A stretch of 40,984 bases of DNA, from IMG/VR virus record IMGVR_UViG_2541047851_000005. One strand, written 5' to 3'. Positions 1,566 through 40,984 of the stretch are shown piece by piece. The position numbers and the translations under genes were made by a program. Below the pieces are notes generated by a model. That model did not search any database. It had not been told where the DNA came from and saw only the letters and a program-made list of their open reading frames with translations. The DNA comes from a virus. Its lineage: Duplodnaviria; Heunggongvirae; Uroviricota; Caudoviricetes. Numbering within the stretch: position 1 is the first letter of the stretch; every line of letters begins with the position of its first letter.

Positions 1566-1591
1566 TTATCCAAAACCTCGGTTTACGAGAA
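1566..1591. repeat. gix recombination site (left in window)
   Basis: TTATCCAAAACCTCGGTTTACGAGAA, inverted copy of the site at 4244-4269 with 2 mismatches; matches recalled Gin gix sequence. Confidence 0.85.
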
Positions 1592-2416
1592 CTCGGAAAA
1601 AGCGGGGATAACATAGCGTTAATCAGTGGAGATAACATGTCGAGCAATCGTCAATTTGAAAATGGCTCAATTCTTGCGTAGATTCCCAGTAATGACGGTA
1701 CGAAGACTGGGTTTAAAACTGATCGAAATGGTGCCGGAGATGGTTTCAAGGGGTCTAAAACAATTGCCAATGGCGACGAATATTTCAAAGGATGAAGACT
1801 CCGGCAAACCACAACTACTGTCCTTGTTAAGCTGAAATGTGAAGCGCTTTATGATAAGGGTAAAGATATCGTTAATGTCGGTGTTGCAGTTGCTTTAATG
1901 CTTCCCTTTAATAGTAGCGCTAGTGTTCTTCGTGATATACACATCCGAGTCAAATATAAAAGTGATGGTATTTCGGACGTGTACGCTAATAGTCAGTATG
2001 GATTTCGATTTGAGAGTGGAGTTTTCTATGCCATGAAAAAAAAACATGCAGGTGGAAGTGATGATTCCTCGCTGCCCACAGCCTATAACTCAACATAGAT
2101 TGCAGGTTTTAGCTTATGGGGTGTTTCAACTCTTCCGATATTTGAAGAGCTCGGCTGGTATGCAAGATGGGGTTACTTCATCACGGGTAATATAAACGGC
2201 AACGGAGTATTATTAATTAACGGAACACTGCAACCCACAATTCGGGGGTATATTAATGCGACGTATGTAAACGCTGGGCGTATGTATCCGCGTGGCACTC
2301 AAAAAATGTTACGTCTTGGAACTCATGAAAAAACCGGGCATACCAGCTCAGGAATCAGATTCATTGGAGATGTCGTTATTCAGGATAAAGCAATAATTGG
2401 ACCGAGGCAAAAATGA
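1592..2416 (+). pseudogene. Alternative tail-fibre variable cassette (S'v-like) with three in-frame stops
   Basis: Frame-2 reading from gix continues IQNLGLRELGKSGDN...; in-frame TAG 1679-81, TGA 1793-95, TAG 2096-98, final TGA 2414-16. Translation is homologous and equal in length to the minus-strand cassette. Confidence 0.55.
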
Positions 2417-2628
2417 ATCTATGGCCCGTCATATTACGTAGCATCGGTGACCATAACGCAGTATTTAATTGTAATGAAATCAGGGTTTCCGCAAACAAAC
2501 CAGAAAGCTCAGCCGTCGTTGAATTTTGTTATAATATGGTAAAGGTCAGGAGTGAGGAATCGGGGGTATGGTTAATTAAAGAAGGCTTAGGAAGACAGCG
2601 TACTGATTGCGAAGGACGACAAAGGTAA
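2413..2628 (+). CDS. Hypothetical ORF inside G segment (position expected for a tail-fibre assembly gene, no recognisable similarity)
   Basis: 71-aa ORF from track; occupies the interior where Mu carries U/U'. I could not recognise Tfa-like sequence. Confidence 0.25.
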   Translation: MNLWPVILRSIGDHNAVFNCNEIRVSANKPESSAVVEFCYNMVKVRSEESGVWLIKEGLGRQRTDCEGRQR

Positions 2629-3417
2629 CATTGTTAAAATGACAAGCAAAGCCTCATCGATCAATTCAGGGAGAATAACCAGCTTTGAGACTCCAGGCTT
2701 CAGATGGAATTGTCTTCCCAAGGGTTTAGGGAAAAAGTTGCCTAAGGAAGGATCTGTGCTTAGAAAGTCGTATACAGAGACCGCTCCGCACTGCCAGTAA
2801 GGTTCACAAAACAACCAGAATGAGTGAGGGGCCGATAGTGGGACTCAGCTTCTAGACAGGGTTTTCTGGCTATATATGACTACGGGTATCCACCGGACAG
2901 GACAGGACTCTTTGGCGTGCCAAAGCCTTCAGTTGAGCCGGTTGCTCATACCAAATCACATATGGCCTCAAAAGCCTTTCCAATAACTGAATCACAATAT
3001 CGGGTCCTGAAACAAACTGGACGTTCTGGGATCGGTACTGTCAGTCTGGAGCTTCCGGTGTATTAAACTTTCTACCCACAGTTCCGCCCCTAAACATCCA
3101 CTTGTTTATATTCGTCGGAAGAGGTTTGGATGCTATGCCGGGAGTCCCATCGCCGGTTTTGCTCTCTGACTTATGCGAACAGGCATCGTTTTTTATGTCC
3201 AGCTTGATACTTCTTCCCTTCCTCACAATATTTACGGTGTCGCCCTACGCCATCTTTGAACACCCATATCAGCTTTACCCCTCCCCGGAGATCAGCTATA
3301 AAACATGATAATTCTATGATGGCTGCTCCTTCCGTTTTATTTGTTGAAATATCCTCTTCAAAATAATTAATTGCTCCATAATGTACACATGCGCTATGCT
3401 ATATGTTGGGCCATTGA

Positions 3418-3982
3418 TTTATTTTTGCATCGTACCAATGATGGCCACCACATGACCATATCCTTCAGCTGTGATATTTAATTGGTAGCTGGTATGCCTG
3501 GCTTGTTCAAAACGAGCACGAAGCAACATTATTTGAGCAACACATGGTTCAATACGACCCGCTTTAAACCACCTCGAATCAAAACTCTACTGAATGGGGG
3601 TCGGCTTCTGAGTATTAATAGAAACTATTCCGTTGCCATTTGTATTTCCCTTAACAAAATAATGTCACCTTTCCTACCCGCCGGAACCTGCCAATGCCGG
3701 ACGGGTTGACGCACCGCATAGACTAAAAGCTGCAATAATCCTGGAGGTATATGCGCCCGGCAGATAGGACTCATCACTTCCACCTGCCTGTATTTTTTTA
3801 ATAGTAATAGCATCTGCACACTGTAATTGAAACACATACCCATCATGAGCCGAACCATAGGGAATACCACCACCTTTATAATTCACACGGGTTTGAACGT
3901 CACCACAACCAACAGAGTTACTACTTAAGGGAATCATCAAACCAAATGCAACACCAACCTGGGTGTCAGCAGCTCCACGATT
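3418..3982 (-). pseudogene. Distal part of tail-fibre variable cassette (Sv), in frame with S but separated by amber and further stops
   Basis: Same frame as S ORF. After TAG 3983-85 the frame continues NRGAADTQVGVAFG...GGSDESYLPGAYTSRIIAAF...; in-frame TAG 3674-76, TGA 3665-67, TAG 3587-89, final TAA 3418-20. Confidence 0.5.
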
Positions 3983-4765
3983 CTATTGCCCTCCCACGTA
4001 CGGCTTCCTCAGATCAGTTGTACTGGTGTGTCGGCGGGCACACCCTTTGAAATATTCGTCACTAATGGCAACATCTTTAGAACCCACGAAAGCAACAGCG
4101 GCAACTTCACGTGCTGTTTTCAGTCTTGTCGCCGCCCAGGCAGTGTCTCGCATTTCGCCAGGAAGTCCATCGCTTTCTGATGTAAGATCGCCGGAGAAAT
4201 TCTCTGTACTGTGTTGCGCTGCGTTCTCCCCCCTGTTTCCCGTTTCCTGTAAACCGAGGTTTTGGATAAATAGCGGCTTATTGGGAATATCTGCTCCGTT
4301 CCGGTCTTTTGCCAGACGGGCATTGGCATTATCCATCGCAATTTTCACCGCTTTTGCGGTGGCTGCCAGCGTTTCACTGGGGCTGTCAGTGGCACTGGTT
4401 AGCTGAACGAGTCCTTTTTTGTTCAGGCTGGCATCATAGATATCCAGATTTTCACGTGCTGTACGCTGTGCTGATGCCCCGGCAATTTTAATTTCGCTGA
4501 GGTTATTTTTTATCAGCAGCGCGTTATTGCTCATAATGGCTTTAATGGACAGTGCAAGCTGGTTTAATTTTGTTTTATCCGGTTGAATACCGGCTTCTTC
4601 CAGCGTGTTTAATAACTCCGCCTGAACAATATTAAACCAGTCCATGCCGGGCCATGTGATAATATTATTCCCGTCACCTTCTGAAAACCAGCGAACGATA
4701 GCACTACGCTGGGCGGATACGGGCGGCATGACGGTTACGCCGCTGTCGTTATCAATATAAAACAT
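3983..4765 (-). CDS. S: Tail fibre protein S (constant part plus proximal variable part), terminated by an amber codon
   Basis: 260-aa ORF; N-terminal 166 aa constant region reads through gix (FIQNLGLQETG) into G; ends at TAG 3983-85, much shorter than the ~500 aa I recall for Mu S. Confidence 0.75.
   Translation of the reverse strand: MFYIDNDSGVTVMPPVSAQRSAIVRWFSEGDGNNIITWPGMDWFNIVQAELLNTLEEAGIQPDKTKLNQLALSIKAIMSNNALLIKNNLSEIKIAGASAQRTARENLDIYDASLNKKGLVQLTSATDSPSETLAATAKAVKIAMDNANARLAKDRNGADIPNKPLFIQNLGLQETGNRGENAAQHSTENFSGDLTSESDGLPGEMRDTAWAATRLKTAREVAAVAFVGSKDVAISDEYFKGCARRHTSTTDLRKPYVGGQ
4244..4269. repeat. gix recombination site (right in window)
   Basis: TTCCTGTAAACCGAGGTTTTGGATAA inside the S coding sequence; inverted relative to 1566-1591. 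Confidence 0.85.
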
Positions 4766-8529: not shown

Positions 8530-10009
8530 TAATCACCTCAATACTGATACCACCGGGAACAAACAACGGGTTGCTGATACCGTTCCTGCGGGCCAGCCGT
8601 TGCCAGTTCCGGCTGTTTCCTGTGTAACGGTACAGGGCCACCATTGCAGGCATCGTCTCCGGCAGGCGGTGCGTTTCACTGCCCGCCAGTTGCAGCCCGC
8701 GTTTTTCCAGGTCGGCAACAACCAGCAGACGCAGTTGCGTAAGCTGAACGCTGTCTGTCGAAAAGCCCTGCTCAGATGCCGTCAGAATGACGGTATCCAG
8801 TGCAGCCCCCAGCATGGCGGCTGTTTTTCCGATATCGGACACACTTTCAAATACCGGGGGCGTGGCTGTACCACTGTCTGAAAAGGATACCTGTGAAAAG
8901 CCGCCGTCCGGGGTTATGGCAGTTAACTGTAACTGTCCCTGTGTGACGGTAGCAGATGTGCTGCTGGCCCCGCTGGCTGTGCCGGTTGTGGTGGACGGGG
9001 CATCCAGTACAGGTGCACGGGCGGCATTATCCATCCGGCGACTGAAATCCAGTGCCGCAGTCAGTGCCTGGCTGGCAGCTTCTGCCCGGTATGTCTGCGC
9101 CGCTGCCAGCATGACGTAGTTCAGTGTGGCAATATTTTTTTCTGCAACCGGACTGTTGTACGAGGTTGTGATTGTCCCCTGTCTGCCTGCGGTGACGGCA
9201 TGGCGACGTTCGAATCGTTGCGCCAGACGGTTCCAGGTGGAAAATGCTGTCCGGGTATCGCATAACGATGAAACGCCGGACAGCGCCCCCATCAGCGAGG
9301 AGGCCAGCATGGCAGGCTGGTTAATCAGGCTGGTCACAGAGCCTTTCATCGCAGAAAGCGATCCCATCAGACCGCTGACAGTCTGCGTAACCCCCAGATT
9401 GTCCACCGCATCACTGATATCATCGATGACACCGGTTACAGCTTCCATCACGGCGGTTGCCGCCGCAGTGCCATCTTTTACGGTCTGCCAGACAGAGGAC
9501 AGCGTATCTCCCAGAGAACCGGTTACAGCAACGGCCTGTGCCGGTACGGCTGCACTGGTGTCTGTCTCTGCGTCCGGGGCAGTATCCTGCAACGACGGAT
9601 AAACGGTAACGGTGAACGCGTAATAATTCAGTTCATCCGCTTTAGTGCGGCATTCCCATGAATCCACCATGACGTCCACAGTGCCGAAATCAGGATGTAC
9701 CAGCTCACCGCTACCCGGAGCATCAAGAGCATCCATCAGCGCACCCGCTTCATCTCTGGCTGTTTCTGCGTTGCTGTTCAGAATGCAGGCGCTGAATGTA
9801 CGGGAGCGAAGCTTTTTCCCCAGGTCATTGACGCCGCCGGTATCACGTAACGGGTACTCGCGTTTAACCAGGCGACGTCCGCCAGCCTGTTTTTGCTCCT
9901 CGATGACGAGAAACGGCACGTTACGGAACGTGCCTTTGCCGGTTGTTTTCCTGCCTCCACCAGTTTTATCCCGGACAGCATTAACGGCATTTAAAGCATC
10001 TTCAAACAT
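8522..10009 (-). CDS. N: DNA circularization protein N
   Basis: 495-aa ORF immediately downstream of the tape measure gene, as in Mu. Confidence 0.75.
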
Positions 10010-10013
10010 GGTT

Positions 10014-12086
10014 TTACCAGCCCGTAATGTAGTTATCGCCCGCGTAAATATTCAGCCCCATACCATCCTCGGTGACGCGGGAACTGGTCAGACGTAACCC
10101 CTCGCCAAGTTCGACGCGCAGCGAGGCTTCCGCATTGACTTTTTGTTCCTGCGGTTCCTTATCCGTGGCCGTCCATTTCTGATACAGGTCGGTTACAAAA
10201 CCGCCCAGATACTCCCCGGCGACACTGCCCAGCGTGGCACCGGCAACCGTACCCAGCGGTCCGGCAAGGCTGCCAACGGCACCGCCGAGCCATGCACCGG
10301 CTGTACTGCCAATTGCGCCTGCTTTTTCATGGGTTGACGCCTGCTCATCCATCAGGACGGGGGCAAGCTGGAGTGCCCCCATTACCGGGCCCCCCAGACG
10401 TGACAACGCACGACCGGCACCTTTCCCCATCCAGCCCAGCGCCCCGGCACCTTTTGTCACAACCCGACCGATCGCACTGCCTGCAAGTTTGTTTCCGATA
10501 CCGGAAAACCACCCGCCAACGGCACGCCCGGCATCAGCCAGCTTTCCGACCGTTCCCGTAACCAGTTGCCCGGCAGCACTGCCTGCAAGCCTGCTCAGAA
10601 GACCGGATTTACCGGGTAAAGGTAATGGTGCAGGCCGTGCCGTTACCGGTACGCCGGGTGGGGGTAATGCCAGTACAGGGCGTGGTGCAGGTAATGCCAG
10701 CGGCTGTGGTCCGGACAGCAATAACGGCTGGCGGGGTAACAGCGGGGCCATTCTTCCGCCGCTCCGTCCGCGACGACCGCCGCCACTCCCGTAGCCACCA
10801 AATCCACGGGGCCAGTTGATGACAAACACACGCTGAATGCCGATACCCTGCAACAGCGTCTCAGACGTCATGGCATCCGGGACCGGCAGACCTGCCTGCC
10901 CACGTTTGCGGTTCCGCATCCAGCGCCACATACGACGCCCGGTTTTAAACGGATAACTGGCAACCTGCCATGAGGGTTTTGCCACGGCCCAGCCTGCTCT
11001 CAGGGCTTTATTGGCAAGCCAGACAGACACCAGAACAGCAGCCAGTTTTTTCAGGCTGACAATATTCTGGTCAACCCATGCCAGCGCATCTTTACCCGGT
11101 TTCAGCCAGCGCCATAACTCCTGCGCCGCGATTTTTACCGTTCTGAACGTGGTCAGAAATTTCTGACCAATGTTTTCTGCCAGTGCGTCAAGTTCCCCGG
11201 ATTTATCCGCCATGTCGTGCCAGTTAAGCACCCGGCGCATCTCGTTCTTGATTTCTTCAAAGGGGCCGCTGTTTGCCACCTTTATGCGAAATTCAAGCAG
11301 GTTGGCTTCCATCTGGGCGAACATCCCGTCCCAGGAGTTCATCGCACTGGCCTGTGCACCTTTTGACTGTTCTGACAGCGTTCTGAATACCGTCAGAATG
11401 GATTTCAGGCCCAGCTTGCCTTTTTCACCTTGTTTGCGGATATCCTTAACGTCTTTACCCAGTGCATCCGCCAGCGTCTGGTAAACGTTAATACCGTAAC
11501 CGGTCAGCAGGTTGGCATCCGCCGCTGTGATTTGCTGGCGGGCAAACATCTGTTTCAGTTGCAGTGAGGCACCCTGTGCAGTGGGTAAATCCCAGCCGTG
11601 CATGGCCCCCTGATCCTGCAACATGGTGATGAACTGTTTCGTCTGTTCATCCGTCATGCCGAAGCCTTTTGACGAACGGATCTCATCCAGAACACCACTC
11701 AGCCCCCACGTGGTGTCCTTCGCGTTCTGCTTTGCCCAGGCCATCATGGCCTGCGCTCTGACCTTATCGCCGTGATACAGCGAGTTCATGGCGATAATCT
11801 GTTGCTCACGCTGGGCGGCTGCACCAATAAACAGTTTATTGGCGGTGTAACCCACGCCAGCGATACCCAGCGCCCCGGCTGACAGCATTCGGAATGTACG
11901 GGTTGACAGAGAACCCATTCTGTCAATGGCACCAGAAACGCGCACAACCTCCATACGCAGGGCACGAAGGGAACTTTGCCCGCTACGGGACAGGGCGTTT
12001 ATCTGGTTCGAATACTGGCGGGAACGCCGGGAAAGATTGCCATTAAGATCAATAATGACAGACGCCTTTAAGCGTTTCCCGGTCAT
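10014..12086 (-). CDS. Tail tape measure protein
   Basis: 690-aa ORF with helical N-terminal region and Pro-rich/Gly-rich low-complexity C-terminal region; between tail chaperone and N. Confidence 0.85.
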
Positions 12087-23937: not shown

Positions 23938-24224
23938 GCACGGGGACGCGGACGCTTGACACCGGCAACGCGGGCGCGGCCTTCCGCCACATCCTGACCT
24001 CGGGAGGTCAGCGTTACGACATAAAAGCCGCGCAGGTTTTCCACGGTGACCAGTTGCTGCTCTGCCAGCCAGTCAATCTGGCCGCGAACCACATCGCGGG
24101 AAACGTTGTGTCCGTATGCATCCAGACAGTCCTGAAGGATGGATTCGTTGGCTTCGTTATTGCAGTCCATCAGGGAACGCAGGATGACCAGACGACGGTC
24201 TTCAGTCAGAATATCGTTAATCAT
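23934..24224 (-). CDS. Small phage protein (Mu gp26-like)
   Basis: 96-aa ORF, 4-nt overlaps with neighbours. Confidence 0.5.
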   Translation of the reverse strand: MINDILTEDRRLVILRSLMDCNNEANESILQDCLDAYGHNVSRDVVRGQIDWLAEQQLVTVENLRGFYVVTLTSRGQDVAEGRARVAGVKRPRPRA

Positions 24225-24538
24225 GAATTACTCCGGTTTACTGCGTTTTCAAGCAGCAGCTCCAGTTGATGGGAAAATGACTGCACCCGCTGGGACAGCA
24301 CCCGGATATCGCCGGACAGCTCTGCAATACGCAGGCGCATTTCGTGTACATCTTCTGTGCCAGGGATGCTGGCGTAGCGGGTTTCCATTTCGGTCATCCG
24401 GTTTTCAAGACGCTCCACACGCTCGGTGCTGGCAAAACTACGACGCATCGCCCAGACGGCCCCACCGGCCACAACAGGCAACAGGTAAGGCCATAACGCT
24501 AAAACTGAAATCAAATCCATTATTCTGCTCCACGGCAC
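24221..24538 (-). CDS. Membrane-anchored lysis-cassette protein (Mu gp25-like)
   Basis: 105-aa ORF with N-terminal hydrophobic segment; in lysis block. Confidence 0.5.
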   Translation of the reverse strand: MPWSRIMDLISVLALWPYLLPVVAGGAVWAMRRSFASTERVERLENRMTEMETRYASIPGTEDVHEMRLRIAELSGDIRVLSQRVQSFSHQLELLLENAVNRSNS

Positions 24539-24714
24539 CAGTGGCAGTAGTTCGCCATCGGCTGCTGCCTCAGCACATCAGGCCGCAGCTCACGACCGCA
24601 ACCGGCACACAATACAGGCGGGTCATACGCCGCCGGGCGGGGAATATCACGGGTATCCCCCTGCCAGAGTTCAGCGAGCAGCAGCGCCACCGCCCGGTTC
24701 TGGTCTTCGTTCAT
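24520..24714 (-). CDS. Small Cys-rich protein (CxxC...CxxC)
   Basis: 64-aa ORF with CAGCGRE...CHWC motif. Confidence 0.4.
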   Translation of the reverse strand: MNEDQNRAVALLLAELWQGDTRDIPRPAAYDPPVLCAGCGRELRPDVLRQQPMANYCHWCRGAE

Positions 24715-25012
24715 AAATTTCTTTCCTTCGGATCTCCTGTTCCCGGACTGATGCCTTGTCGCGGTTGCACTGCCCGAGCGCCATCAACAGGTCAGCATTC
24801 CAGAGAAGGGATGCTCCCCACGTCAGGGGCTGTGGCATGGGCGGAACGGGCGTTGCTTCTGTCAGTTCTGTATCAGTTTCGGGCAGGATCACCACCGATG
24901 GCACGGGTGCGTTTTTCGAGTTCCCGCAACCTGTCAGCAGCAACGGCAGGCACAGGACGAGTGCTGCAATTGTCACCAGTAATGGCGGTTGTAATTTTTT
25001 CTTTTGCATCAT
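24671..25012 (-). CDS. Outer-membrane spanin (lipoprotein)
   Basis: Within ORF 24671..25147 the internal start MMQKKK is followed by a signal peptide and lipobox LLLTGC; overlaps the i-spanin in another frame. Confidence 0.55.
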   Translation of the reverse strand: MMQKKKLQPPLLVTIAALVLCLPLLLTGCGNSKNAPVPSVVILPETDTELTEATPVPPMPQPLTWGASLLWNADLLMALGQCNRDKASVREQEIRRKEIYERRPEPGGGAAAR

Positions 25013-25259
25013 GATGTTCTGTCTCATCTGCCAGCCGTGCGGCACGATTTGCGGCACGGATAGCGGAAAATACCTGCATCGTCTGTTCCTGACCGTGTAA
25101 CAACCATTCAGCAGTGTGGCGGGCCTGTTGCTCCGTCTGTAATTCACGGCGCAGCGTCTGGTTATCGTGGCGGGTGCTGTCCAGCCTGTGCCACAACACC
25201 CCGGACAGAACGGCGGTAAACACGGCTGCCAGCAGTAAACTTTTACTGGCGAAGGTCAT
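24873..25259 (-). CDS. Inner-membrane spanin
   Basis: 128-aa ORF with N-terminal TM helix then charged coiled-coil; directly downstream of endolysin. Confidence 0.6.
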   Translation of the reverse strand: MTFASKSLLLAAVFTAVLSGVLWHRLDSTRHDNQTLRRELQTEQQARHTAEWLLHGQEQTMQVFSAIRAANRAARLADETEHHDAKEKITTAITGDNCSTRPVPAVAADRLRELEKRTRAIGGDPARN

Positions 25260-25761
25260 CCGCCCCCCTGATATTCCAGATTGCCATTTCCACTTCGCGA
25301 CGGTTCATCAGTCCTTTCCATTTATGGCCTGCGGCAAACACCCAGCGGGCCATCTGGTCACGCGCTCCGGCGTAATCACCGGCATTGAGTTTTTTCAGCA
25401 GCGTTGATTTACTGAATGCGGTAACACCGGTGTTGAAAATAAACGTTGCCAGCGCCGTTTTCTGATATGGCGTCAGCGGCACCCTGACAAGACGATCGAT
25501 TGCCGCATAAACCGGTTTTAAATCACTGTCGAGGAGAGCCATACACTCCGCATGGCTGTAACGGCGCATTTCGATATCCGGCCCGGTATGTCCCACACAG
25601 ACCGTAAGCACACCGGCAATATCGCGGTAAGGCATATAAGCGATATTTTCCAGATGGATCAGAGACTGACGGGTCATTTCCTGATAACCACCCACACTGC
25701 CACCGGCAATCGTTGCCGCCAGCAGTGCGGCTTTCAGTTTTTTTGGTATCCCCGCCATCAT
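25243..25761 (-). CDS. lys: SAR endolysin (lysozyme) Lys
   Basis: 172-aa ORF with N-terminal signal-anchor-release segment and lysozyme-like body; first late gene after C. Confidence 0.88.
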   Translation of the reverse strand: MMAGIPKKLKAALLAATIAGGSVGGYQEMTRQSLIHLENIAYMPYRDIAGVLTVCVGHTGPDIEMRRYSHAECMALLDSDLKPVYAAIDRLVRVPLTPYQKTALATFIFNTGVTAFSKSTLLKKLNAGDYAGARDQMARWVFAAGHKWKGLMNRREVEMAIWNIRGADDLRQ

Positions 25762-25852
25762 GCTTCCCTGAAAAAATGCTCTGATGGCAGTCTAAAAAAT
25801 CAGATGGCAGGTGCGGGATTATGGTGACAGGAAATAACCGGCAGGATGCCGG

Positions 25853-26275
25853 TTATTTCTGGCTTTCAGGTGAGAACAGATCAGGCTGATGACGTCGTGT
25901 ATGCAGCTTTCTCTGGCGGGCAATAATCTGGTAGATCTGCGGCTGGGACAGGCGATACTGGCGACGCAGTTCTTCCATGTTACGACCATTGAACTGGCAG
26001 TAAAGCAAATCGTCGCGTAACGCGGTCAGGATCGTATCGCCGCAGGGGATGTAAAACTGCCGTCCGCCCAGAAAACAGGACAGGGCAACGGCCTGTTTAC
26101 GGGCAAGCTCACGGGGATTGCTGACGTTCTGGCGTTTCAGTTCGTTTTCCAGAACATCAATCAGATCAACCACCGAACGGGGCCAGCGTGATTCCAGTTC
26201 CGGGGCCGGGATGTTATCAATATGTCCGATTAACTGGCGAATTGCCGGATCGTGTTCAAATAAATCATGCTGCAT
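25853..26275 (-). CDS. C: Late transcription activator C
   Basis: 140-aa ORF, Mor/C family, paralogous to mor 0.4 kb upstream; matches recalled Mu C length. Confidence 0.9.
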   Translation of the reverse strand: MQHDLFEHDPAIRQLIGHIDNIPAPELESRWPRSVVDLIDVLENELKRQNVSNPRELARKQAVALSCFLGGRQFYIPCGDTILTALRDDLLYCQFNGRNMEELRRQYRLSQPQIYQIIARQRKLHTRRHQPDLFSPESQK

Positions 26276-26387
26276 ATTTTCCCCCGGTTAACAGACAGAA
26301 AGATACACCACGGCACTGATGGTTATCAGAACCACAAGGGCAATCACTTTTATCGCATTAATCAGCGTGGACGGCCCGAAACATTCA

Positions 26388-26618
26388 TCACTGAATTTTC
26401 TGTACACAATATTTTTCCTTATAACGTTGACAGTGGTGAAGAATTTCCGGCATATCAACTGACTGCCAGCCTTTCATGTAATAACTGCCGTGGGTGCCAT
26501 CATGACCGGTATAGTCGCGGGGCGCAGGCCGTGGCCCACCGGCGACACGGTGCAAAACCTCCTGACGCAGCCGCTCACGTCTGCCAAGATGAAAGGATGC
26601 ATTCCAGCCTTTACCCAT
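26388..26618 (-). CDS. Small ORF between mor and C (Mu gp18-like)
   Basis: 76-aa ORF; position only. Confidence 0.3.
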   Translation of the reverse strand: MGKGWNASFHLGRRERLRQEVLHRVAGGPRPAPRDYTGHDGTHGSYYMKGWQSVDMPEILHHCQRYKEKYCVQKIQ

Positions 26619-34901: not shown

Positions 34902-34926
34902 AAGGTATGCAGCAATGCTAGTGTGA

Positions 34927-35676
34927 AAAGAGGGACTGACCGGCGAAGGCGCTGCACGGCAGAATGCCATCAATGCTTCGGTTGCACAGGGCCTTGAGGC
35001 GTCCCTGCGCTGGCTGACGGAGCTGACAACGTCACTTGCCACCACAAACTACGCGATTACCCGGGTAAACGACAGGGTCAGTTCACTGGTCAGTGATACT
35101 GCCAGGCTGGCGCATTATTCCGCAGATACACGGGAGCAGTTACTCATCCTGGCCGATCAGGTTCACCATAAACTGAATCATCTTGAAGAAAAACTCCACC
35201 GTGTTGACCAGGTTCAGCGGGCGCAGTTACATCTTGAGCAGATATTCTCATGGTGGAGCGCCGGGCGATATGCGTCATTTTCCCCTGCCGGACGTTGTTA
35301 TGTGGCGCTTGAAGAGCTTCGCTGGGGCGCGTTTGGTGATGTGATACGTCAGGGCGAAACAGGCCAGGTTAACCAGCTACTGGATATTCTCAGACATAAA
35401 GCATTAACGCAGATGGCACAGGAGAGTGGCGGTAGTGCAACCGTGCGTCTGAACACTCTGGACTGGCTTGGTGGTCAGGGCCGGGAGCAGGCAGATAACG
35501 AGTGGCATGACGCGATTAACTGGCTGGGAGACTGGTGCAGTGAAGAGCAGCATCCGGTGATCTGGTCAACCACGCAGGCTGCAGAACACTTACCGGTTCG
35601 CATGCCTCGCCTCTGCTCTGCAGAACGCCTCTCTGAAAGTATGGTCGATGAAATATTTCAGAAGGGGGCTGCATGA
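34927..35676 (+). pseudogene. 5'-truncated ORF (about 250 codons, no start codon) translationally coupled to patatin gene; unknown function
   Basis: Frame open from TGA at 34924-26 to stop at 35674-76 with no ATG/GTG/TTG before GTG 35302; stop overlaps the patatin ATG (ATGA). Coiled-coil-like and Trp-rich C-terminus. Confidence 0.55.
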
Positions 35677-36743
35677 GTACAGAAATGAAAACGGGGCTGG
35701 TGCTGTCCGGTGGCGGGGCGGTGGGCGCTTATCAGGCGGGAGTGGTTAAGGCACTGGCAGAGTGTGGTACACAGATCAGCATGGTTTCAGGGGCCAGCAT
35801 TGGCGCATTCAATGGTGCCATTATCGCGGCCTCTCCCGATCTGTCAGAAGCTGCCGTACGCCTGGAGGCGCTCTGGGATCATCTGGGGAATAATCAGGTG
35901 CTGTCGGTAAACCGATTGGTTTACTTTTCATTGCTGAAAAAATTGTTCCAGGCAATGAACCTCTGCCAGATCCCCGGACGTGCAGGAGCACTGCTTACGA
36001 CGCTTCTTCGCCATATATCGATACTCAACGGGTTTGACAATCTGATGGCTCAGCCGTTGTTGTCAGATGAGCCCCTGACAGCGCTGTTGGATCATTATCT
36101 TGATACTGATGCTCTGGCAGACGGGCTACCGCTGTATGTGTCGCTGTACCCCACAGAAGGGGGCATGCAGGATATTATTGACTGCATTCGTGCTGAACTG
36201 GGTGCCGGAACCACGAAAAACGCCGTTTTTCAGCATATCCAGAGCCTGCCCCGCGGACAGCAGAAAGAGGCTCTGCTTGCGTCAGCCGCGCTGCCCCTGC
36301 TGTTCCGTCCCCGTGAGGTTCAGGGGACAATGTTCGGTGATGGTGGTATGGGAGGATGGCGAAATATGCAGGGAAATACCCCTGTGACGCCTCTGGTCGA
36401 TGCCGGATGCAATATGGTGATTGTGACGCATCTGAGTGACGGTTCTTTATGGGATCGCCAGGCTTTTCCGGACACCACAATCCTTGAGATCCGTCCCCGG
36501 AAAAGGCTGAAATATGCAGGTGATGGTGACAACAGCGGCGGTCTGCTCAGTTTCACGTTGGCACATACCGACGCCTGGCGTCAGCAGGGCTATGAAGACA
36601 CGATGCTGACGATGGAGCATATCCGGAAACCGCTGGCAGCACGTCAGGTACTGTCCCGGTCAGAAACGGTGTTGCAGAAAAGTCTGGAGATAACGGAAGA
36701 GGCAGATTTGGCACTGAGAAACGCGATGGCCCGGATTAAATAA
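35673..36743 (+). CDS. Patatin-like phospholipase
   Basis: 356-aa ORF with oxyanion-hole SGGGAVGAY, nucleophile motif GASIG (GxSxG) and catalytic Asp motif DGG (MFGDGGMGG); AGGGGG Shine-Dalgarno upstream. Confidence 0.9.
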   Translation: MSTEMKTGLVLSGGGAVGAYQAGVVKALAECGTQISMVSGASIGAFNGAIIAASPDLSEAAVRLEALWDHLGNNQVLSVNRLVYFSLLKKLFQAMNLCQIPGRAGALLTTLLRHISILNGFDNLMAQPLLSDEPLTALLDHYLDTDALADGLPLYVSLYPTEGGMQDIIDCIRAELGAGTTKNAVFQHIQSLPRGQQKEALLASAALPLLFRPREVQGTMFGDGGMGGWRNMQGNTPVTPLVDAGCNMVIVTHLSDGSLWDRQAFPDTTILEIRPRKRLKYAGDGDNSGGLLSFTLAHTDAWRQQGYEDTMLTMEHIRKPLAARQVLSRSETVLQKSLEITEEADLALRNAMARIK

Positions 36744-36757
36744 AGACGCCCCAAAGA

Positions 36758-36786
36758 AACGCCACCGCCTGTGGTGGTGTTTTTCC
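36758..36786 (+). terminator. Possible weak intrinsic terminator after patatin gene
   Basis: CCACC-gcctgt-GGTGG stem followed by TGTTTTT. Confidence 0.35.
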
Positions 36787-37073
36787 TGGCTGGTGTTATT
36801 GAAAATATTTTCAGATATATATTACCTGAGAGAAAGTTTTACCCCTCACCTGTCAATTCACTCACTGGAAATTTAATTATGCAATTACCTGTAAAGTTAT
36901 TAATGAGCCTTATATCTCTGGTCAGCGTTATTGCACGTGCCGGGAAATATAAAAATTACATCCGGGATGAAATAAAATACTGGCGATATACATCATACAA
37001 GGGGGGGGAATTTCCGGAAGGTTTCACTGATGAGAAATTTTCCAGCGCCATTTACAACGGAAGAATATTTACA

Positions 37074-37556
37074 ATGAAACGTTTACATACCCTGATGTTA
37101 TTTCTGGCGGTTCTGTTTACTGGCTTTAACGTGGAAGCAGCGAGCGTGAAACAAGCGCTCAGCTGCGACCCAAACGCCCGGGCTGAACAACCTGGAGCGT
37201 GTCCAACAACGTACGAGTTGTACGAAGGTGACGCTGCCTACAAAGCTGCGCTTGACAAAGCATTAAAACCGGTCGGACTGAGCGGCATGTTCGGTAAAGG
37301 CGGGTATATGGATGGCCCTGGCGGAAACGTAACGCCAGTAACCATTAACGGTACAGTCTGGCTCCAGGGCGACGGTTGCAAAGCCAATACCTGCGGCTGG
37401 GACTTTATCGTAACACTCTATAACCCAAAAACCCATGAAGTCGTTGGCTACCGCTACTTTGGTTTAGATGACCCGGCCTACCTGGTTTGGTTCGGCGAAA
37501 TTGGCGTGCATGAATTCGCGTATCTGGTGAAAAACTACGTAGCTGCGGTTAACTAA
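37074..37556 (+). CDS. Ivy-family (lysozyme inhibitor)-like periplasmic protein
   Basis: Start moved to internal ATG at 37074 (MKRLHTLMLFLAVLFTGFNVEAAS signal peptide). Mature part has a CKANTC loop resembling the CKPHDC loop of Ivy. Upstream 300 bp is AT-rich and non-coding-like. Confidence 0.5.
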   Translation: MKRLHTLMLFLAVLFTGFNVEAASVKQALSCDPNARAEQPGACPTTYELYEGDAAYKAALDKALKPVGLSGMFGKGGYMDGPGGNVTPVTINGTVWLQGDGCKANTCGWDFIVTLYNPKTHEVVGYRYFGLDDPAYLVWFGEIGVHEFAYLVKNYVAAVN

Positions 37557-37571
37557 TTTAAGGAGTCTGTC

Positions 37572-37982
37572 ATGAAAACTTTTATCAAAACTTTACTCGT
37601 TGCTGTAACTATTCTGTTCTCTGTCTTCGCTACGGCGAAACAAGTAAAACTGCCAAACAACATCAAATACGTTAATACTACAGAGGCGTTTTCCTGTACT
37701 GAGATTGACGGTATGAATTGCCAGACGAAGAATCCGTTTAACTATAAAGATAACAGCTATGTTTTCGTGCTTGAACGTGGTGGTGCCTGGTGTTACGACT
37801 ACACTGTCTCGGTACTTAACCTGAAAACCGGGAAAGCACAGATGCTCGAATACAAAGACAACCAGCTGTGCTCAGGTAGCAACAAACCGTTCTTCGAAAT
37901 CAAAAATGGCGTACCGACGGTAGGAGTCATCGACACATCCGGAAAACCTGTCGTTGTGGCTCTGGACAAACTTAAAACCTGA
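37572..37982 (+). CDS. Small secreted Cys-containing protein, unknown function
   Basis: 136-aa ORF with signal peptide MKTFIKTLLVAVTILFSVFATA; GGAG Shine-Dalgarno; 16 nt after the Ivy-like gene. Confidence 0.6.
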   Translation: MKTFIKTLLVAVTILFSVFATAKQVKLPNNIKYVNTTEAFSCTEIDGMNCQTKNPFNYKDNSYVFVLERGGAWCYDYTVSVLNLKTGKAQMLEYKDNQLCSGSNKPFFEIKNGVPTVGVIDTSGKPVVVALDKLKT

Positions 37983-38124
37983 GGAGTAAACCATGCGTTT
38001 CTCTGCACATTATTAATATCAAAGGTAAATACAGCCCCAGCCATTGTTGCCGGAAAGCCGCTTAATGCGTGGCTCGCCAGTGAAAGGCTTCTCAGACAAT
38101 AAACCTCATTCATTTCACCCGTCA

Positions 38125-38158
38125 GGCCGCGTCTTCTCCGGGAGACGTGGCTTTTTTC
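38125..38158 (+). terminator. Intrinsic terminator
   Basis: GCCGCGTCT...AGACGTGGC hairpin followed by TTTTTT. Confidence 0.5.
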
Positions 38159-38202
38159 ATTTATTACACCAGTAAATCTTAACCACCGATAAGGAGCAAA
38201 GT

Positions 38203-39024
38203 ATGCGATTAGCAAGTCGTTTTGGTTATGCTGCAAACCAGATACGTCGTGACCGTCCACTGACACATGAAGAGCTGATGCACCATGTGCCGGGGATTTT
38301 CGGGGAAGAGAAACACACGTCCCGAAGCCAGAACTATACGTACATCCCCACCATCACCGTACTGGAAAGCCTGCAGCGGGAAGGCTTTCAGCCATTCTTC
38401 GCCTGCCAGACCCGTGTGCGCGACCCGGGCCGCCGGGGATACACCAAACACATGCTGCGTCTGCGGCGGGCCGGAGAGATAAACGGAGAGCATGTCCCTG
38501 AAATTATTCTGCTCAACTCTCATGACGGTACCTCCAGCTACCAGATGCTGCCGGGTTACTTCAGGTTCGTCTGCCAGAACGGCTGCGTCTGTGGTCAGTC
38601 TCTGGGGGAAGTGCGTGTTCCACACCGGGGAGACGTAGTGGAGAAAGTTATTGAAGGGGCTTACGAGGTGGTGGGCGTGTTTGACCGGATAGAGGAGAAG
38701 CGTGATGCCATGCAGTCGCTGGTCCTGCCGCCACCGGCACGCCAGGCGCTGGCACAGGCGGCACTGACTTACCGTTATGGTGACGAACATCAGCCCGTCA
38801 CCACCGCCGACATTCTGACGCCACGACGCCGGGAGGATTACGGTAAGGACCTGTGGAGTGCTTATCAGACCATCCAGGAGAATATGCTGAAAGGCGGGAT
38901 TTCCGGTCGCAGTGCAAAAGGAAAACGTATCCATACCCGGGCCATTCACAGCATTGATACCGACATTAAGCTCAACCGTGCATTGTGGGTGATGGCAGAA
39001 ACGATGCTGGAGAGCCTGCGCTGA
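38203..39024 (+). CDS. YfjQ/YafZ-family protein (DUF932) of CP4-like islands
   Basis: 273-aa ORF MRLASRFGYAANQIRRDRPLT...; matches recalled YafZ/YfjQ family; AGGAG Shine-Dalgarno. Confidence 0.75.
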   Translation: MRLASRFGYAANQIRRDRPLTHEELMHHVPGIFGEEKHTSRSQNYTYIPTITVLESLQREGFQPFFACQTRVRDPGRRGYTKHMLRLRRAGEINGEHVPEIILLNSHDGTSSYQMLPGYFRFVCQNGCVCGQSLGEVRVPHRGDVVEKVIEGAYEVVGVFDRIEEKRDAMQSLVLPPPARQALAQAALTYRYGDEHQPVTTADILTPRRREDYGKDLWSAYQTIQENMLKGGISGRSAKGKRIHTRAIHSIDTDIKLNRALWVMAETMLESLR

Positions 39025-39286
39025 TGCAATCTGTCCCTGAAGGCGTGATTCAGGCACCAGAATCACCCGACGCCCCGGAGAGCTCAGTCTGTGCAGACTG
39101 AGTACAGGCAATGGCATCTGGCCATCCGTCTGTGACCGGAACGGTTACGCGTACGGCTGTCCGGAATTTCAGCCGAATATCATTCATCCCTGACATTACC
39201 GGGTCTCACGGTCAGTGATGAACGTGATGTTGTCAGCCCCCGGCCTTTACTCCCTCTCATTTATTCACATTACAAGGATTTCATAC

Positions 39287-39760
39287 ATGAAAACATTGTC
39301 TCAGAACACCACCTCTTCGGCCTGTGCACCGGAGACTGGCCTGCAACAACTGGTTGCCACCATAGTCCCTGATGAACAGCGCATCAGCTTCTGGCCGCAG
39401 CATTTTGGCCTCATTCCACAGTGGGTGACCCTGGAGCCCCGGGTCTTCGGCTGGATGGACCGTCTGTATGAAGACTACTGCGGTGGTATCTGGAATCTGT
39501 ACACCCTGAACAACGGTGGCGCATTTATGGCACCCGAACCGGATGACGATGATGACGAAACATGGGTACTGTTCAATGCCATGAACGGTAACCGCGCTGA
39601 AATGAGCCCGGAAGCCGCCGGCATTGCTGCCTGTCTGATGACGTACAGTCATCACGCCTGCCGTACGGAGTGTTATGCCATGACGGTTCATTATTACCGT
39701 CTGCGGGATTACGCCCTGCAACATCCGGAATACGACGCCATTATGCGCATCATTGACTGA
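39287..39760 (+). CDS. Antirestriction protein (KlcA/ArdB family, YfjX/YafX-like)
   Basis: Start at ATG 39287 (MKTLSQNTTSSACAPETG...); acidic DDDDDE stretch; matches recalled YfjX/YafX. Confidence 0.8.
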   Translation: MKTLSQNTTSSACAPETGLQQLVATIVPDEQRISFWPQHFGLIPQWVTLEPRVFGWMDRLYEDYCGGIWNLYTLNNGGAFMAPEPDDDDDETWVLFNAMNGNRAEMSPEAAGIAACLMTYSHHACRTECYAMTVHYYRLRDYALQHPEYDAIMRIID

Positions 39761-39775
39761 AAGGGGGCAGGAACA

Positions 39776-40252
39776 ATGCAACAGATTTCCTTTCTGCCCG
39801 GAGAGATGACGCCCGGCGAGCGCAGTCTCATTCTGCGGGCCCTGAAAACCCTGGACCGTCATCTTCATGAACCCGGTGTGGCCTTCACCTCCACCCGTGC
39901 GGCACGGGAATGGCTGATTCTGAACATGGCGGGACTGGAGCGTGAAGAATTCCGGGTGCTATATCTGAATAACCAGAATCAGCTGATTGCCGGTGAAACC
40001 CTCTTCACCGGCACCATCAACCGCACGGAAGTCCATCCCCGGGAAGTGATTAAATGCGCCCTGTATCACAATGCCGCAGCCGTGGTGCTGGCACACAATC
40101 ACCCGTCCGGTGAAGTCACCCCCAGTAAGGCAGACCGCCTTATCACGGAACGTCTGGTACAGGCACTGGCCCTGGTGGATATCCGGGTACCGGACCATCT
40201 GATAGTTGGTGGCAGTCAGGTTTTCTCTTTTGCGGAACACGGTCTGCTTTAA
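39776..40252 (+). CDS. RadC-like JAB-domain protein (YeeS/YfjY/YkfG family)
   Basis: 158-aa ORF with HNHPSG metal-binding motif. Confidence 0.85.
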   Translation: MQQISFLPGEMTPGERSLILRALKTLDRHLHEPGVAFTSTRAAREWLILNMAGLEREEFRVLYLNNQNQLIAGETLFTGTINRTEVHPREVIKCALYHNAAAVVLAHNHPSGEVTPSKADRLITERLVQALALVDIRVPDHLIVGGSQVFSFAEHGLL

Positions 40253-40320
40253 CCCGTCACCGTCACAACCACATCACACCTGTTTTCACTTTTATCTTCT
40301 GTCTTCAGAGGTATCACACT

Positions 40321-40542
40321 ATGAAAATCATCACCCGTGGTGAAGCCATGCGTATTCACCGTCAGCATCCGGCATCCCGTCTTTTTCCGTTCTGCACCGG
40401 TAAGTACCGCTGGCACGGCAGTGCTGAGACGTATACCGGTCGTGAAGTACAGGATATTCCCGGTGTGCTGGCCGTGTTTGCTGAACGCCGTAAGGACAGT
40501 TTTGGCCCGTATGTCCGGCTGATGAGCGTCACTCTGAACTGA
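40321..40542 (+). CDS. DUF987 protein (YeeT/YpjJ/YkfH family)
   Basis: 73-aa ORF MKIITRGEAMRIHRQHPASRLFPFCTGKYRWHGSAE... Confidence 0.75.
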   Translation: MKIITRGEAMRIHRQHPASRLFPFCTGKYRWHGSAETYTGREVQDIPGVLAVFAERRKDSFGPYVRLMSVTLN

Positions 40543-40615
40543 GTCAGGAGAAATGATGAGCCGAATTATCGCTGCCACCGGACCATTCTTAACTGATTTC
40601 TGTGAGGACTTTATC

Positions 40616-40984
40616 GTGTCAGACACACTGCCCGGGACAACGCATCCCGACGACAATCACGACCGCCTCTGGTGGGGACTGCCCTGCACCGTGACGCCCT
40701 GTTTCGGGGCACGTCTGGTGCAGAAGGGTAACCGGTTGCATTACCTTGCCGACCGCGCCGGTATCAGAGGCCGGTTCAGCGATGCAGATGCATACCACCT
40801 GGACCAGGCCTTTCCGCTGCTGATGAAACAACTGGAACTCATGCTCACCAGCGGTGAACTGAATCCCCGCCATCAGCATACCGTGACACTGTATGCGAAG
40901 GGGCTGACCTGTGAAGCCGACACCCTCGGCTCCTGTGGTTACGTTTATCTGGCTGTTTATCCGACGCCCGAAACGAAAACGTAA
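40616..40984 (+). CDS. cbeA: CbeA/YeeU-family antitoxin (partner toxin CbtA expected just beyond window end)
   Basis: Start at GTG 40616 (VSDTLPGTTHPDDNHDR...), 122 aa, ends at TAA 40982-84; matches recalled YeeU. Confidence 0.8.
   Translation: MSDTLPGTTHPDDNHDRLWWGLPCTVTPCFGARLVQKGNRLHYLADRAGIRGRFSDADAYHLDQAFPLLMKQLELMLTSGELNPRHQHTVTLYAKGLTCEADTLGSCGYVYLAVYPTPETKT

Follow-up and report, generated by a model that had tools for sequence, protein, structure and literature searches.

Identity of the Lysis Region

The window analyzed here is a single viral DNA stretch of 40,984 nt, most of which is a Mu-type prophage in reversed orientation, and all genes in the part considered are carried by the minus strand. 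The interval 24100–25900 was 99.0% identical at the DNA level to Escherichia phage Mu (AF083977 / NC_000929) over all 1801 nt, and coordinates were converted as window = 36238 − Mu, using the Mu record AF083977. The curated Mu features for gp22, gp23, and gp23.1 coincided with ORFs of the window, and the Mu record likewise annotates gp24, the releasin gp25, Plys, and the terminator behind gene C (Table 1). An earlier sequence-only reading had placed a lysis cassette of an endolysin and two spanins at 24671–25761 and had suggested a comparison with the Mu lysis genes. In that comparison, all three gene calls matched the curated Mu annotation; the genes covered by the span are real, but the span left out gp24 and the releasin gp25, which lie downstream.

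Table 1. Features of the lysis region and of its control elements, in window coordinates.
Feature	Coordinates	Strand	Basis
Late-gene activator C (gp21), turns on lysis promoter	25853..26275	-	Pfam Mor family, E = 9.3e-34; AF083977 transcription regulator C
Hairpin terminator after gene C	25832..25855	-	Mapped from Mu feature 10383-10406
Plys, C-dependent late promoter of the lysis/head operon	25769..25835	-	Mapped from Mu feature 10403-10469
gp22, SAR (signal-anchor-release) endolysin, lysozyme family	25243..25758	-	171 aa; Pfam, triad, curated Mu record
gp23, i-spanin (inner-membrane subunit, N-in C-out)	24873..25259	-	128 aa; TMD, PHROG 214, Mu annotation
gp23.1 (Mu_55), o-spanin, outer-membrane lipoprotein subunit	24671..25012	-	113 aa; lipobox, Pfam LysC, AF083977
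gp24, CxxC...CxxC protein	24520..24714	-	64 aa; 100% identical to Mu gp24; PHROG 3260
gp25, releasin (DUF2730), N-out C-in	24221..24520	-	Pfam DUF2730; 99/99 aa identical to Mu gp25

Each of 14 phage records covered at least 80% of 24100–25900, and D108, SfMu, PhiR68_1, and several Yersinia Mu-like phages showed DNA identities of 97.7–98.9%. The region was also present in 41 of 5426 complete E. coli genomes. From gp22 to gp25, four residues differed from Mu, all of them conservative: V15A and G21S in gp22, G21V in gp23, and I46T in gp23.1. The proteins gp24, gp25, and gp26 were identical to those of Mu. Residues A15 (gp22), V21 (gp23), and T46 (gp23.1) were found in all of SfMu, PhiR68_1, and vB_YpM_3, while S21 (gp22) was seen among these three only in vB_YpM_3. 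Every variant residue recurred in SfMu, PhiR68_1, vB_YpM_3, or an E. coli A20 prophage, the first three of which are plaque-forming or active, and at three of the four variant positions it is Mu that carries the minority state among the relatives compared. The K6/K7 pair, the lipobox, and the catalytic triad were unchanged across these relatives, with the exception of T52S in vB_YpM_3.

Transcriptional Control

The activator C, which precedes the lysis genes, was identical to Mu C at 138 of 140 residues, and its Pfam Mor match lay above the gathering score. The hairpin that follows its gene, AACCGGCATCCTGCCGGTT and then ATTTCC, is identical to that of Mu, Plys differs from the Mu promoter by two mismatches, and the region of the terminator and the RBS is nearly identical to Mu. 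Plys and the terminator after gene C both escaped a simple promoter and terminator scan, and their positions in Table 1 come from the Mu coordinate mapping; a missing sigma-70 consensus match is expected at Plys because the promoter is activator-dependent. Genes 24 and 25 share the late transcript and cluster with the endolysin and spanin genes. Upstream of C, gene 19 (Mu 9463–9831) is cleanly absent at about 26404–26407, and the start codon of gp20 is GTG.

SAR Endolysin

The endolysin ORF (25243..25761) opens with two adjacent ATG codons, at 25761 and 25758. The sequence-only reading had begun the gene at the first of these; we accepted 25758 because the second ATG is the start in the curated Mu record and the one from which residues are numbered in print (K6, K7, E37). 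Its identification of the product as a SAR endolysin stood. The protein matched the Pfam Phage_lysozyme family (PF00959) with E = 1e-37 and 129.7 bits (cut-off 22.3), and the NCBIfam search returned sub-threshold matches only. The triad E37-X8-D46-X5-T52 is present in agreement with the pattern E-X8-D/C-X5-T, with the motif ENIAYMPYRDIAGVLT beginning at E37.

Signal calls for the cassette were based on a PROSITE-type pattern and on our own hydropathy computation. The most hydrophobic 17-residue window of gp22 covered residues 8–24, LKAALLAATIAGGSVGG, with a mean Kyte-Doolittle value of 1.30, whereas the same measure gave 2.13, 2.73, and 1.95 for gp23, gp23.1, and gp25, respectively, all well above gp22. 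Low hydrophobicity of the N-terminal segment is a hallmark of SAR endolysins. Residues 6–25, KKLKAALLAATIAGGSVGGY, include five Ala, four Gly, one Ser, and one Thr, and the basic residues K6, K7, and K9 are kept. The N terminus therefore has the makeup sought in a SAR segment, i.e., weak hydrophobicity, a Gly/Ala/Ser/Thr-rich composition, and preceding basic residues. Compared with Mu gp22, 169 of 171 residues were identical, and both substitutions lie within the SAR segment.

The phage 21 pinholin S68 can release Mu gp22, a SAR endolysin, and the 22::cam mutation blocks lysis (PMC9239132). The earlier reading of a signal anchor in place of a cleavable signal draws on these Mu experiments, not on the sequence by itself. 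By extension of these experiments to a copy with two different SAR-segment residues, the gp22 described here would be membrane-tethered, uncleaved, and releasable.

Overlapped Spanin Genes

Gene 23 begins within the 3' end of gene 22, with an overlap of 17 nt. Its product carries an N-terminal TMD, SLLLAAVFTAVLSGVLW, at residues 7–23 (hydropathy 2.13) and a single cysteine, Cys98, and it matched PHROG 214 ("Rz-like spanin") with E = 1e-34. In the Pfam search, DUF2570 was the only match and fell below threshold (17.7 bits against 26.6); the NCBIfam search with the spanins gave no family-level match. Compared with Mu gp23, 127 of 128 residues were identical, the substitution lying in the TMD, and the topology is that annotated for Mu gp23. 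The ORF that had been read as a type II membrane protein is thus the curated Mu i-spanin.

The o-spanin gene begins inside gene 23. The maximal ORF around it spans 24671..25147 with a GTG start, and the lipoprotein proposed earlier begins at an internal ATG, 25012, which is exactly the start in the curated Mu record. From this ATG, the o-spanin gene opens in the +1 frame 247 nt into gene 23, shares 140 nt with it, and continues for 202 nt past its stop. An o-spanin gene that starts within the i-spanin gene in another frame and ends beyond its stop is an overlapped architecture as defined in the literature, which also gives the lipobox consensus as [LVI][ASTVI][GAS]C (PMC6139136), and the overlapped arrangement first suggested from the letters of the window held up in each of these respects. 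From 25012, the protein begins MMQKKKLQPPLLVTIAALVLCLPLLLTGC and fits the PROSITE PS51257-type lipoprotein pattern (K/R within the first seven residues, plus a lipobox) with Cys29 as the modified residue. The lipobox on which the earlier proposal hinged was found, together with a signal peptide, by pattern and hydropathy: a KKK n-region is followed by a hydrophobic core and by L26-T27-G28-C29 (LTGC), which is invariant in Mu, SfMu, PhiR68_1, vB_YpM_3, and the E. coli A20 prophage. The residue at +2 is Gly rather than Asp, and gp23.1 thus has no inner-membrane retention signal. The mature part of 85 aa contains 10 Pro and a second cysteine, Cys82. Compared with Mu, 112 of 113 residues were identical. 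Cys98 of the i-spanin and Cys82 of the o-spanin, beside the lipid-modified Cys29, may be available for intermolecular disulfides, a role taken from the general spanin literature (PMC6139136).

The neighbouring in-frame ATGs at 25027 and 25009 also give legal lipoprotein signals, and the RBS before 25012 is weak. The exact start of gp23.1 is not fixed by the sequence on its own, and 25012 is taken as the probable one, being the Mu_55 start in AF083977 and being implied by the W65am mutant described below.

The weak RBS is also one of the points that could make the internal ORF (24671–25012/25147) a chance open frame, with gp23 alone disrupting the outer membrane or with disruption unneeded. Chance alone often leaves an overlapping frame open, and the o-spanin gene is unannotated in several deposited Mu-like genomes. 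When all possible starts of ORFs of 50 aa or more were screened in the six frames of the 41-kb window, the lipoprotein pattern matched four times elsewhere, each time from a GTG or TTG start. However, the product of the internal ORF matched the Pfam LysC (Rz1-like) family with E = 4e-14 and 52.7 bits (cut-off 27), as well as PHROG spanin families at 1e-28 and 4e-16, the "Rz-like spanin" family matching both spanin ORFs. Its signal peptide and lipobox are kept in all six relatives compared despite other substitutions. The amber mutation W65am in Mu 23.1, which lies beyond the gene 23 stop, gives, in Mg2+, spherical cells in place of lysis, a spanin-defective phenotype that is complemented by lambda RzRz1 (PMC9239132). 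A chance frame is exceedingly improbable in the face of these results, and gp23.1 is treated as an o-spanin throughout.

In a sister prophage, the RefSeq o-spanin is given a GTG start 40 codons downstream, with which the signal peptide and lipobox are lost. Gene callers often fail at such overlaps, and the sequence-only reading called the unannotated overlapped o-spanin, with its correct start, from the raw sequence.

gp24, Releasin, and the Probable Absence of a Holin

Two further genes follow the spanins. Gene 24 sits between the o-spanin and releasin genes, and its first 44 nt coincide with the 3' end of the o-spanin gene. The PHROG family to which it belongs (3260) is of unknown function, and searches of Pfam and NCBIfam gave no match above cut-off; a NinF fragment suggested by Pfam was dismissed as meaningless. 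No lysis role is reported for gp24 in Mu (PMC9239132).

The product of gene 25 matched PF10805 (DUF2730) with E = 2.5e-13 and 50.4 bits (cut-off 24.9), while the NCBIfam search with it gave no family-level match. An N-terminal hydrophobic segment occupies residues 3–19 and is followed by MRR. Counting gp23.1, it is the fourth gene after gp22, and it combines the features by which a releasin was recognized: a DUF2730 domain, a TMD, and a position no more than five genes downstream. In Mu, gp25 is a cytoplasmic protein with a membrane tether, and gp22 requires it in order to leave the membrane (Chamblee et al. 2022, mBio, PMC9239132). Loss of gene 25 (25::cam) blocks lysis in Mu, as does loss of 22, gp22 and gp25 together suffice for lysis, and either K6A or K7A in gp22 abolishes the dependence on gp25 (PMC9239132). 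For the action of the releasin, tail cleavage, neutralization of the basic tail, a transient channel, and a host factor have been proposed (PMC9239132).

No holin or pinholin gene was recognized beside the endolysin, the only other membrane proteins recognized nearby being gp25 and the middle gene product gp20. A SAR endolysin normally has a pinholin as its partner, a single strong TMD is present in both gp25 and gp20, and gp19 and gp20 had earlier been put forward as a holin-antiholin pair (literature cited in PMC9239132), all of which could point to a conventional holin-endolysin-spanin cassette with gp19/gp20 as the holin or gp25 as a pinholin. Gene 19, however, is missing both here and in the active phages SfMu, PhiR68_1, and the Yersinia Mu-like phages. 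Moreover, Mu genes 19, 20, and 25, alone or together, showed no dinitrophenol-triggered lethality and no holin activity, and the effect of dinitrophenol on Mu lysis is a delay, not a trigger (PMC9239132). A conventional cassette is thus very improbable, and the natural absence of gene 19 in this prophage and in active Mu-like phages lends small independent support to the published conclusion that gp19 is not the Mu holin. Given that gp25 is 100% identical to its Mu counterpart and that K6/K7 are kept in gp22, the best-supported reading is that the cassette would be holin-less, would functionally include the releasin gp25, and would follow the same releasin-dependent pathway as Mu.

State of the Prophage

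As assembled, the prophage lacks its left end, with a junction at ~34927; the missing part comprises repressor c, attL, and the bulk of the early promoter region. A Mu left-end sequence used as a query was not found in the window, which the missing left end explains. Without this end, the cassette may never be expressed in its host, and the lysis genes could be an intact but silent relic in which Mor and C are never made. The Mu-like sequence stops at ~34927, 68 nt upstream of ner, and beyond this point the window is 100% identical to an E. coli chromosomal island, entered inside an rdcB-family gene. Set against this, all lysis ORFs and Plys are intact with no visible decay, and since the assembly of this window clearly went wrong in the G segment, a mis-join could also account for the truncation junction. 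The roughly 50:50 mixture found in that segment also means that Gin, at least, is expressed. We regard a silent relic as unlikely on balance, although it deserves serious consideration.

The artefact itself was traced as follows. The invertible G segment (about 1587–4230) contains no ORF longer than 88 aa, yet it aligns gap-free to the Mu tail-fibre genes S, U, U', and S' across many in-frame TAA, TAG, and TGA codons. An intact G region of exactly this length occurs in a Mu-like prophage of E. coli Z0117EC0036. Compared base by base with this reference, the segment was 60.4% identical in the forward and 58.8% in the inverted orientation, whereas 94.9% of the bases matched one or the other, with 99–100% in many 100-nt bins; control symmetry centres gave a mean of 70.4% and a maximum of 72.3%. 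At positions where the two orientations differ, 916 carried the forward base, 874 the inverted base, and 77 neither, with a mean run of 2.0. The G segment is a consensus artefact of assembling a ~50:50 G(+)/G(-) population and not biology of the molecule. A mixture of G(+) and G(-) indicates that Gin was active in the sequenced culture. Stop-codon reassignment was rejected, as all three stop codons occur in frame. Ordinary pseudogene decay and targeted hypermutation were also rejected: the segment carries no indels, relatives show 98–100% identity in its flanks, and an intact relative, read in one orientation or the other, accounts for 95% of its bases.

Proposed Lysis Pathway

What the window shows directly is where the genes lie, which motifs and family matches they have, and their near-identity to Mu. 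With a probability of about 0.95, we read the locus as a late lysis cassette belonging to a Mu-type transposable E. coli prophage, near-identical to that of Mu and expected to work alike; no feature of the sequence speaks against this reading. The SAR behaviour, the spanin phenotype, the need for a releasin, and the absence of a holin would carry over to this copy from the Mu work.

Under this reading, the activator C would switch Plys on, and the gp22 muramidase would be exported via Sec, its weakly hydrophobic SAR segment, rich in Gly and Ala, tethering it in an inactive state to the inner membrane. A holin would play no part, release of gp22 instead depending on the releasin gp25. Once freed, gp22 would refold and then degrade the peptidoglycan. 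Translation of the o-spanin would begin at the +1-frame ATG located 247 nt into gene 23, the two genes being overlapped as in P2 and not embedded as in lambda. The spanin formed by gp23, with its inner-membrane TMD, and gp23.1, a Pro-rich outer-membrane lipoprotein, would remove the last barrier, presumably by fusion of the inner and outer membranes.

The A15/S21, V21 variant without gene 19 might differ from Mu in releasin dependence or in lysis timing, or gp24 might act in lysis, although we think either quite unlikely; nothing seen in the analysis points to altered release behaviour or to a lysis role for gp24.

The cassette is already known, the Mu genes, their topology, and their genetics having been published in 2022 (PMC9239132). 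As a near-identical copy of a published cassette, the locus has small discovery value, and its value is practical.

Comparison with Known Systems

The closest counterpart is the Mu cassette gp22/gp23/gp23.1/gp24/gp25, which has the same gene order, overlaps, frames, starts, promoter, and terminator. It differs from the present copy in the four conservative substitutions, in the upstream middle gene 19, which is missing here, and in the left end of the prophage, which is missing as assembled. SfMu, PhiR68_1, vB_YpM_3/23/Tongde, and D108 carry the same cassette at the DNA identities given above. These Mu-like relatives share the A15/S21, V21, and T46 variants and, with the exception of D108, the arrangement without gene 19. 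Their deposited annotations mostly lack an o-spanin gene or label the genes hypothetical, and the N-terminal TMD of the releasin differs slightly in SfMu.

The pinholin-SAR endolysin systems of phage 21 and P1 likewise rely on a SAR endolysin whose N-terminal TMD is weakly hydrophobic, as in gp22. They differ in that no holin or pinholin gene was recognized here and in that Mu-type release needs gp25 and gp22 K6/K7 (PMC9239132). For the spanins, the overlapped lysB/lysC genes of P2 and the embedded Rz/Rz1 genes of lambda similarly encode a type II inner-membrane subunit and an outer-membrane lipoprotein subunit in the +1 frame. Unlike in lambda, the gp23.1 gene is not wholly embedded and continues beyond the i-spanin stop, and the likeness to P2 extends to the match of gp23.1 with the Pfam LysC family.

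Sequence Mosaic in the Invertible G Segment

The invertible tail-fibre G segment contained no ORF longer than 88 aa, and in-frame stops were abundant throughout. It was compared base by base with the G region of L010, the intact Mu-like prophage of E. coli Z0117EC0036, which matched 60.4% of G-segment positions in forward orientation and 58.8% when inverted. One orientation or the other matched at 94.9% of positions, compared with 70% for control symmetry centres. The two L010 orientations alternated in a coin-flip pattern with a mean run length of 2. The mosaic is a consensus artefact of assembly or polishing, produced from a G(+)/G(−) population mixed at ~50:50. Such a mixture implies that the Gin invertase is active.

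Features of the prophage and adjoining host DNA (window coordinates)
Feature	Position	Strand	Remark
Gin invertase	918-1511	minus	
G segment (tail fibre)	~1587-4230, within 1566-4269		invertible
S ORF	3983-4765		cut to 260 aa
gp24	24520-24714	minus	64 aa, between o-spanin and releasin
gp20	26288-26407		flanks gene 19 gap
gp18 homologue	26388-26618		flanks gene 19 gap
Host DNA	34926-40984		

Prophage Ends

Position 1 of the window is equivalent to Mu 36602, the final base of mom, so attR (the right end of the prophage) lies outside the window. At the left end, the Mu-like sequence stops at a junction at ~34927, 68 nt upstream of ner, where it abuts directly on a CP4-44-like E. coli island at a point within an rdcB-family gene. 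This island carries genes for a patatin-like phospholipase, DUF932, yeeS, yeeT, and cbeA. Neither the repressor c gene nor attL was found at this end of the prophage as assembled, and the operator/early-promoter region was present only in part. The truncation could be a genuine deletion or a mis-join.

Lysis Region

In L008, the sister prophage in E. coli A20 (99.7% identical), RefSeq/PGAP labels the o-spanin "lysC, Rz1-like" (L008 772-993) and has it begin at a GTG, equivalent to window position 24892, that lies 40 codons downstream from where the gene truly starts; the signal peptide and lipobox are thereby lost from the annotation. The o-spanin gene is unannotated in several deposited Mu-like genomes (SfMu, PhiR68_1, and vB_YpM_3). 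The start of gp24 shares 44 nt with the 3′ end of the o-spanin gene. Its product is 100% identical to Mu gp24, carries two CxxC pairs (CAGC...CHWC), and matches PHROG 3260, a family of unknown function; one record labels it "TraR/YbiI family".

Mu gene 19 (Mu 9463-9831) was cleanly missing at ~26404-26407, between the gp18 homologue, whose C-terminus is changed (76 aa vs. 72 aa), and gp20, in which the ATG start codon is replaced by GTG. The product, gp19, is a protein with four TMDs that was formerly put forward as the Mu holin, and its absence fits the published view that it is dispensable for lysis. The arrangement lacking gene 19 is common to SfMu, PhiR68_1, the Yersinia vB_YpM phages, and the window.
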